DNA of 64,000 bases from Eledone cirrhosa (Eukaryota): NCBI GenBank assembly GCA_964016885.1, contig OZ024741.1, positions 205,344,001 to 205,408,000 on the forward strand. Reading direction: 5' to 3'. The notes under the pieces were generated by a model. That model had not been told where the DNA came from. It was given only the letters and a program-made list of their open reading frames with translations, and searched no databases. This document shows, piece by piece, positions 5,026 to 5,455 of this stretch (its first letter is position 1; every line of letters begins with the position of its first letter). The position numbers and the translations under genes are program-made.

Positions 5026-5030
<5 letters not shown>

Positions 5031-5455
5031 TAATATAAGATCAAAAGATGGTTAAAGGAGTTCCATGTATTATATTATGCGCATTTCAAAAACCAACATC
5101 ATCATGCAATAATATTTGTGTTTTCATCAGATAAAACAGGAGAGCATGATATGAAGGCTAAAAAACACTTGTGGATAGTGCAGTTTTAAATCAACATATG
5201 TTGATTTAAAACTGCACTATCCACCAGTGTTTTTTAGCCTTCATATCATGCTCTCCTGTTTTATCTGATGAAAACACAAATATTATTGCATGATGATGTT
5301 TGTTTTTGAAATGCGCATAATAAAATACATGGAACTCCTTTAACCATCTTTTGATCTTATATTATGTATACTCCAGTCCTACAAACTGTAGAGTGCTTCT
5401 TATCCGATATCTGCATTGCTTTATTGTACTACAATAAAACTCACCTCCTACATTA
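5026..5455. mobile_element. Penelope-like pseudo-LTR remnant forming a ~335 bp spacerless palindrome
   Basis: 5030-5197 is the reverse complement of 5198-5365 with about 3 mismatches. It carries a hammerhead motif and sits in (TA)n. Confidence 0.7.
5259..5325 (+). ncRNA. Type I hammerhead ribozyme (Penelope-type, palindromic stem III)
   Basis: TTTTAT-CTGATGA-stem II (AAACACAAA...TTTGTTTTT)-GAAA-TGCGCA-TA-ATAAAA. All core nucleotides and three stems are present. Confidence 0.8.

Follow-up and report, generated by a model that had tools for sequence, protein, structure and literature searches.

A spacerless octopus palindrome with two hammerhead motifs as a probable head-to-head insertion of a short Penelope-like element

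Introduction

What kind of event leaves a long palindrome without a spacer, carrying a hammerhead motif in each of its two arms, in the DNA of an octopus? Such a structure lies near the left end of the 64-kb stretch analysed here as a whole (hereafter, the window), and the question is whether it records the insertion of a mobile element, an error of sequencing or assembly, or a module that serves its host. Penelope-like elements (PLEs) provide the closest precedents. Head-to-head palindromic junctions accompanied by a tail are described for them in the accessible text of PMC3846280, and that of PMC8557442 reports an inverted, 5'-truncated copy, a one-sided tail of 30-40 bp and a bias towards (TA)n targets. 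According to the available part of PMC11167929, the PLE protein of the anole, in purified form, introduces nicks into each strand of AT-rich DNA and extends them, two internal RT start sites bound the tail, and uncut RNA is the substrate. Recently active Penelope families have been described in O. vulgaris, with hammerheads unmentioned in the main text (PMC13282606). In the literature covered, mostly open-access main texts, no account of the octopus repeat family analysed here or of twin priming by PLEs was found; the supplements of PMC8557442, PMC4209133 and PMC13282606 may contain the family.

Results

Geometry of the palindrome and its flanks

The first-pass annotation of this DNA had described a spacerless palindrome centred at 5197/5198 with about three mismatches, and this description was reproduced. 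The arms (5030-5197 and 5198-5365, 168 bp each) meet at 5197|5198 with zero spacer, and three of the 168 arm pairs are mismatched (5170/5225, 5094/5301, and 5072/5323); allowing a fourth mismatch (5029/5366) extends the arms to 174 bp (5024-5371). With a score of 158 the palindrome ranks first among the four non-simple hairpins of the 64-kb window, the runner-up scoring 58. The RNA fold of 5024-5457 reached -285 kcal/mol (z -36.7), and none of 100 shuffles was equally stable.

The left arm (5030..5197, minus strand) corresponds to a tail-less copy of the element, its 5' end at the centre and its 3' end abutting a microsatellite, with which it shares TA letters that leave the position of this 3' end ambiguous within 5024-5030. 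The right arm (5198..5365, plus strand) is the pLTR-like body of a tailed copy, and the head-to-head junction between the two (5192..5203) coincides with the natural 5' boundary of the octopus repeat family described below; the self-complementary ATAT at 5196-5199 is probably common to the 5' ends of both copies. Only the right copy continues into a tail of 83-88 bp (5366..5453, plus strand), behind the end of which, at 5453, family members show loose ends in TA runs. The tail holds an 8-bp hairpin with AATAAA (5420-5438) and an AC-rich end, and no poly(A) was found within 5366..5453. The extent originally assigned to the feature, 5026..5369, therefore stands as regards the palindrome but not as regards its right limit, since the element reaches about 5453 by way of the overlooked tail.

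The element sits inside a single (TA/TATG)n array, whose TATG polarity is the same to its left and to its right. The left flank (3010..5029), taken as the insertion target, contains 205 TATG versus one CATA, and the right flank (5454..6211) is the same microsatellite in the same orientation beside the element (45 TATG versus no CATA in 5454-5953). A target of this composition masks any target-site duplication of the palindromic insertion.

Another repeat family was observed at 1038-1649, 2850-3006, 62371-62981, 63021-63217, and 52521-52673. Its two longest copies (1038-1649 and 62371-62981) share 612 bp at 96.6% identity, and those at 1038 and 2850 likewise lie inside TA/TATG arrays.

A palindromic shape in AT-rich DNA, together with weak Rfam matches to microRNA precursor models, might also suggest a MITE, a foldback DNA transposon, or a microRNA precursor. 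All of these Rfam matches, however, fell far below the gathering score and are put down to a generic hairpin shape, and the asymmetric ends (with their one-sided tail) and a centre that varies between copies argue that the palindrome is not itself the mobile unit. An origin of this kind is regarded as extremely improbable.

Further inverted structures were seen elsewhere in the window. An inverted repeat at 54018-54194 is MITE-like (74-bp arms, four mismatches, 29-bp spacer), and smaller hairpins occur at 34527-34668 (imperfect, about 140 bp), at 29189-29252 (a TA run enclosed by arms of 32 bp), and at 55708-55772 (26-bp perfect arms, 13-bp spacer). Four inverted pairs, 97-100% identical and 0.4-1.8 kb apart (36060-36264/36894-37098, 55419-55591/56359-56532, 43130-43343/45144-45357, and 45355-45477/45864-45986), are possibly the inverted ends of other retroelement insertions.

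A high-copy repeat family and its junctions

Public sequencing runs were mapped onto a 308-bp reference spanning 5150-5457. Twenty runs were listed by the run search, four of them with at least half of the query words and none recorded as RNA; two of the 20 were among the four runs mapped, and the 16 organism labels in the list were not counted as evidence of spread. The informative run, X1, which has no library on record, may be the source sample of the window itself. X1 gave 4046 contigs on the 308-bp stretch, and run X7 gave a single contig of low depth; the RNA runs X21 and X24, of which about 6% and 12% were covered, yielded 0 reads, a result that weighs neither for nor against expression, editing or cleavage. 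Summed depth in X1 was 1e5 to 2e6, compared with 11-38 for the eight single records shown, values that are not to be read as copy number. The arms of the palindrome belong to a high-copy octopus repeat of about 260 bp, present far above the level of one locus. Among the 6 of 76 loose-end groups listed for X1, loose ends in TA runs were found in 32 contigs behind 5370 and in 15 behind 5453, which points to two discrete 3' ends of the family (about 5365-5370, and 5453); a mixed group was also listed behind 5352.

The centre of the palindrome is bridged in X1 by an 83-nt contig (5159-5241, with 39 and 44 letters on the two sides) at a depth of 37.8, whose five differences indicate that it derives from another locus. 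Other inverted joints had depths of 9-160. Sixty-four joints were recorded, and in 25 of the 27 listed the antisense arm ends at 5192-5199. Their sense partners start anywhere between 5196 and 5430, eight of them at 5357-5359, eight inside the tail, and none at the ribozyme cut (5318-5322). Several of the listed joints contain junction inserts that repeat the element's own 5' letters. Compared with a uniform distribution, the hot spot at 5357-5359 has a window-corrected p of about 3e-7 on the assumption of independent events, an independence weakened if, as may be the case, some joints share ancestry. The hot spot overlaps an ATAT (5359-5362), at which microhomology may explain it; no listed joint lies at the other ATAT sites (5243, 5280, and 5407). 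As the reference included just 48 bp of the left arm, joints near the centre were favoured, and the X1 contigs were too short to reveal the far ends of the joined copies.

These family data also bear on the concern, already voiced in the first-pass annotation, that the palindrome might be a fold-back chimeric read or a misassembly. Spacerless palindromes amid long microsatellites are hard to sequence, and no displayed read or contig spans the whole stretch. A fold-back, however, would mirror the flank: a mirrored tail and an inverted flank were both sought and neither was found, as the left flank does not correspond to the tail read in reverse complement and the TATG polarity is equal on both sides. 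The C at 5225 in the right arm is private, nearly all family depth at that position being A, and the left-arm letters at 5094 and 5072 appear to be private as well, judging from the lack of any variant of 5% or more at 5301 and 5323. In addition, the left arm stops where members of the family naturally end, and both the centre, in another copy, and other inverted joints are covered at the depths given above. An artefact is therefore very unlikely, and the divergence of about 1%, split across both arms, would fit a young and real insertion.

Two hammerhead motifs pointing outward

A type I hammerhead motif was identified in the right arm (5265..5319, plus strand) by descriptor match and fold. 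It consists of the core CUGAUGA (5265-5271), stem II (5272-5307; 15 bp with one C-U mismatch), GAAA (5308-5311), an 8-bp stem I formed by 5257-5264 with 5320-5327, and a palindromic helix III strand (5311-5318) that contains AUGCGCAU, followed by an AUA triplet with a predicted cut at 5319|5320. The earlier description of this motif as intact was borne out for the core and stems but not for the 10.1-11.1 pair, which is A-U in both arms and not the conserved G-C. In this respect, and in lacking a base between A9 and 10.1, the octopus motif is unlike the metazoan PLE hammerheads of PMC4209133, in the accessible text of which the G10.1-C11.1 pair is called highly conserved and an extra base after A9 typical. 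No variant at 5% or more was present at the 10.1-11.1 pair in X1. Between 5255 and 5332, four family variants reach 5% in that run, and all of them preserve the fold and leave the core untouched, those at 5258 and 5282 retaining pairing, that at 5290 lying in a loop, and that at 5328 in a bulge; this pattern speaks for a real ribozyme fold.

In X1, a loose end before 5289 yielded a seven-contig consensus that represents a sister subfamily with G at 10.1. All five of its stem II differences are pair-compatible, although the loose ends behind this consensus are short (median 14 nt) and its support is thin.

The second motif (5076..5130, minus strand) is damaged, retaining its core but with stems I and II each broken once. 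Where a single stem I mismatch had been reported for it, two lesions were found, stem I being interrupted by a U-U mismatch at 5072 and stem II by an A-G mismatch at 5094, and stem I pair probabilities were at most 0.01 in the left arm versus 0.56-0.83 in the right. Both hammerheads point outward from the centre and are the sole two core positions matching the descriptors in the 64 kb.

Matching a descriptor carries limited weight in itself. A relaxed descriptor applied to block-shuffled windows gave 0.17 matches per window (five of 30 shuffles had one), so that window-wide the hammerhead motif alone exceeds chance only modestly; from the same shuffle rate, the chance of a motif falling within the 260-bp element is about 7e-4. 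As the two real matches are copies of each other, the weight of the motif comes from its context and not from the descriptor alone. The Rfam search gave no match at the gathering score, and its 59 weak matches include no hammerhead family. Isolated arms folded no more stably than shuffles (z -0.37 to +0.46), and folding energy thus lends the ribozyme no support. Metagenome loci that matched a 19-nt core pattern were also inspected, and all 12 were rejected as chance matches, with 19-33 nt matched in each.

The proposal that this is a hammerhead of the dimer type with a palindromic stem III agreed with the computed energetics: helix III forms an 8-bp intermolecular duplex of -10.5 kcal/mol, whereas its probability in the monomer is 0.001. 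The dimer-ready fraction of the ensemble was about 1% for the right arm and under 0.01% for the left. The small fraction in the right arm, the A-U pair at 10.1-11.1 and the unremarkable stability of the isolated arms all count against full activity. In the published text available, monomeric metazoan PLE hammerheads are reported to be unable to cleave alone (PMC4209133), and PLE hammerhead cleavage is reported to be absent without PLE protein (PMC11167929).

Evidence for a Penelope-like origin

Four PLE hallmarks were found together at the locus, namely a hammerhead in a terminal repeat, an inverted copy adjacent at the 5' end, a one-sided tail, and a microsatellite target of the (TA)n kind. 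These bear out the initial assignment of the palindrome to a Penelope-like pLTR with an inverted copy, and a PLE-type head-to-head insertion can be proposed with high confidence. More specifically, a short PLE (a solo pLTR or a non-autonomous element of about 260 nt) is likely to have inserted here recently as two head-to-head copies, probably with neutral effect. Known PLE biology explains the locus, which in itself is an ordinary scar left by a transposon.

The resemblance extends to published detail. As in the inverted pLTR insertions of EN+ PLEs, so far as the accessible texts of PMC3846280 and PMC8557442 describe them, there is a palindromic 5'-to-5' junction, a one-sided extension, an AT-rich/(TA)n target, and a hammerhead inside the repeat. 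Unlike those insertions, the octopus palindrome lacks an ORF, whether between its repeats or next to them, its tail measures 83-88 bp versus the published 30-40, and both of its arms are complete at the 5' end. Neither an autonomous parent nor a connection to an RT/GIY-YIG ORF, the trait that defines a PLE, was found in the window: no RT or EN adjoins the element, and the 33-aa frame in the tail gave one match (E 1e-4), to an unrelated repetitive protein. The hammerheads share with those of metazoan PLEs, as presented in the available part of PMC4209133, the type I form, an intact core, a long helix II, and a palindromic helix III that requires a dimer; the 15-bp helix II and the 8-nt helix III palindrome differ from that type. 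The same text reports that PLE pLTRs carry dimer-type hammerheads and that opposite-strand pairs lie 100-700 bp apart, a spacing given for Schistosoma, and the core-to-core gap in octopus is about 135 bp.

A separate PLE fragment was observed at window positions 38640-40800 on the minus strand. No DNA similarity was found between this fragment (38.6-40.8 kb) and the palindrome.

Several of these properties would also be expected of an inverted dimer formed by chance from a SINE-like monomer or a non-LTR retrozyme (a unit of 150-450 bp that has a circular RNA and a type I hammerhead), the octopus repeat being about 260 nt long, 30% GC, and without an ORF, with a type I hammerhead. It thereby resembles the short, non-coding, low-GC non-LTR retrozymes of PMC7229834, which according to the accessible text are present in molluscs, and retrozymes may derive from pLTRs in the view of the available part of bioRxiv 10.64898/2026.07.22.740005. 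Retrozymes are, however, defined by head-to-tail tandems, none of which was seen in the window, and no 3'-to-5' joint occurs among the 27 of 64 joints listed; the octopus repeat is instead inverted and tailed, and the long stem II, the tail, and the inverted junctions are all PLE traits. Although retrozymes and PLE end repeats may grade into each other, a chance dimer of a retrozyme is improbable here.

Twin priming or fold-back

The junctions of the sister copies suggest twin priming from two start sites, a mechanism to which moderate confidence is given if the insertion is of the PLE type. The RNA would start at about 5196, upstream of the hammerhead, and be copied uncut. A PLE RT/GIY-YIG protein acting in trans would nick both strands of the (TA)n target, and two cDNAs would be primed, one per start site, of which one would be tail-less and the other tailed, their 3' ends joining through a short identity such as ATAT. 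At the 5197|5198 locus, both cDNAs would have reached the 5' end and so left a palindrome that is perfect. Most sister copies would stem from a tailed cDNA that halted early, and sense partners that start at 5357-5359, a little short of the tail-less end, or in the tail would represent a second cDNA blocked on the same RNA.

Twin priming is established for L1, whose 5' inversions combine a 5' part in inverted orientation with a 3' part in sense, linked by microhomology or short inserts. The octopus joints are like them in this arrangement and in the microhomology or short inserts; unlike in L1, the second priming site seems fixed (at the PLE RT start), and in most cases the inverted arm extends as far as the 5' end of the RNA. 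Similarities to Poseidon of Anolis (PAc), as characterised in the available text of PMC11167929, are the two 3' ends that bound the tail, the AT-rich target, an AC-rich stem-loop near the end, and the lack of any indication that copied RNA is delimited by ribozyme cleavage. A difference from PAc is that stem II in octopus starts no ORF, a stop following after 13 codons; inverted insertions do not come up in that text.

The mirror arm could also have arisen by fold-back self-priming, in which a full cDNA, or an antisense template, forms a hairpin at the fixed 5' end, anneals internally, and copies back on itself, a nuclease later leaving the tail on one side only. Fold-back self-priming has been proposed for palindromic head-to-head junctions in the accessible text of PMC3846280, and it equally predicts a fixed end with a variable partner, an ATAT centre, and inserts copied from the 5' end. 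It has difficulty, however, with the eight of the 27 listed partners (of 64 joints) that start in the tail. No tail-less cDNA could serve as their template, and from a tailed one two tailed arms would result unless one were trimmed to a second end with precision. Moreover, when the anole PLE protein was purified, it used two start sites to extend the pair of nicked strands, according to the available part of PMC11167929. Fold-back self-priming is judged rather unlikely overall; given a PLE-type insertion it gains a little and may be kept as a tentative alternative to twin priming, and a mechanism other than these two would then be quite unlikely.

Probable location in a WASF intron and predicted consequences for host RNA

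Comparison with protein sequences placed the last two coding exons of a host WASF (WAVE) gene at 17810..21640 on the plus strand. WASF residues ~188-608 map to 17810-18970 and 21455-21637 (plus strand), and the frame has 98% identity over 288 aa to the WASF protein of Octopus bimaculoides. Residues 1-187 were not found in the 64-kb window and are presumed to be encoded outside it, which would place the palindromic element in an upstream WASF intron, on the plus strand, if the assembly is correct. The intronic position raised provisionally in the first-pass annotation is therefore supported.

Open retroelement fragments were also seen in WASF introns, at 20462-21094 (minus strand) and 6213-6833 (plus strand). 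Neither frame gave a Pfam match; they are tentatively labelled a CRE-like nuclease and a CR1/Jockey-like C-terminus. Elsewhere, an uninterrupted 372-aa frame (58800-59918, minus strand) has two hydrophobic segments and weak, below-cutoff Pfam matches to APD1-4_N and APD1-4_M.

A read-through transcript of either strand would make the antisense arm first, so that in a WASF pre-mRNA the ribozyme would be trapped in the 168-bp hairpin. In equilibrium folds, which do not describe kinetics, the unpaired probability of the core was at most 0.04 at all eight transcript prefixes, in agreement with the earlier suggestion that the long dsRNA would silence the ribozyme. Each strand carries one sense hammerhead, leaving no dimer partner in cis even without the hairpin. 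With the antisense arm made first, one sense ribozyme per strand and a damaged left motif, cleavage of a read-through transcript is improbable, and cleavage of WASF pre-mRNA is, on these models, unlikely.

By analogy, the 168-bp hairpin is a likely candidate substrate for ADAR. Octopus showed the strongest hyper-editing among the 19 species surveyed in PMC5625713, in which palindromic repeats were the preferred substrates and lizard Penelope was heavily edited. These precedents, the perfect 168-bp dsRNA, and the small RNAs yielded by inverted rotifer PLEs (accessible text of PMC3846280) are what a selected regulatory module could build on, the ribozyme being held by its antisense and freed by A-to-I editing, or the hairpin serving as an siRNA source for control of WASF or of the family. 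The arms, however, lie about 1% from the family majority, indicating an insertion too young for conservation to be demonstrable; the locus is one among very many copies, its left motif is decaying, and it has no dimer partner in cis; and editing would presumably strike the core adenosines as well. Selection for such a role is thus considered very improbable, and the regulatory framing given initially to the sense ribozyme and its antisense was left unsupported, the palindrome being a routine by-product of PLE insertion.

Discussion

The wider value of the palindrome lies in the family to which it belongs. We tentatively suggest that this is an apparently undescribed, very high-copy mini-PLE that inserts by twin priming, whose tail cDNA often halts at 5357-5359 or in the tail, and which would be a large source of self-silencing, perfect dsRNA for hyper-editing. 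A comparison of thousands of family junctions could tell whether PLEs use twin priming or fold-back self-priming, and so address insertion steps that the accessible texts of PMC3846280, PMC8557442, and PMC11167929 leave open. If true, twin priming would account in a single step for two PLE features, the inversion of the pLTR and the presence of a tail on one side only. For octopus itself, the family may be a source of long and perfect dsRNA, which is unusually abundant in this animal (PMC5625713).
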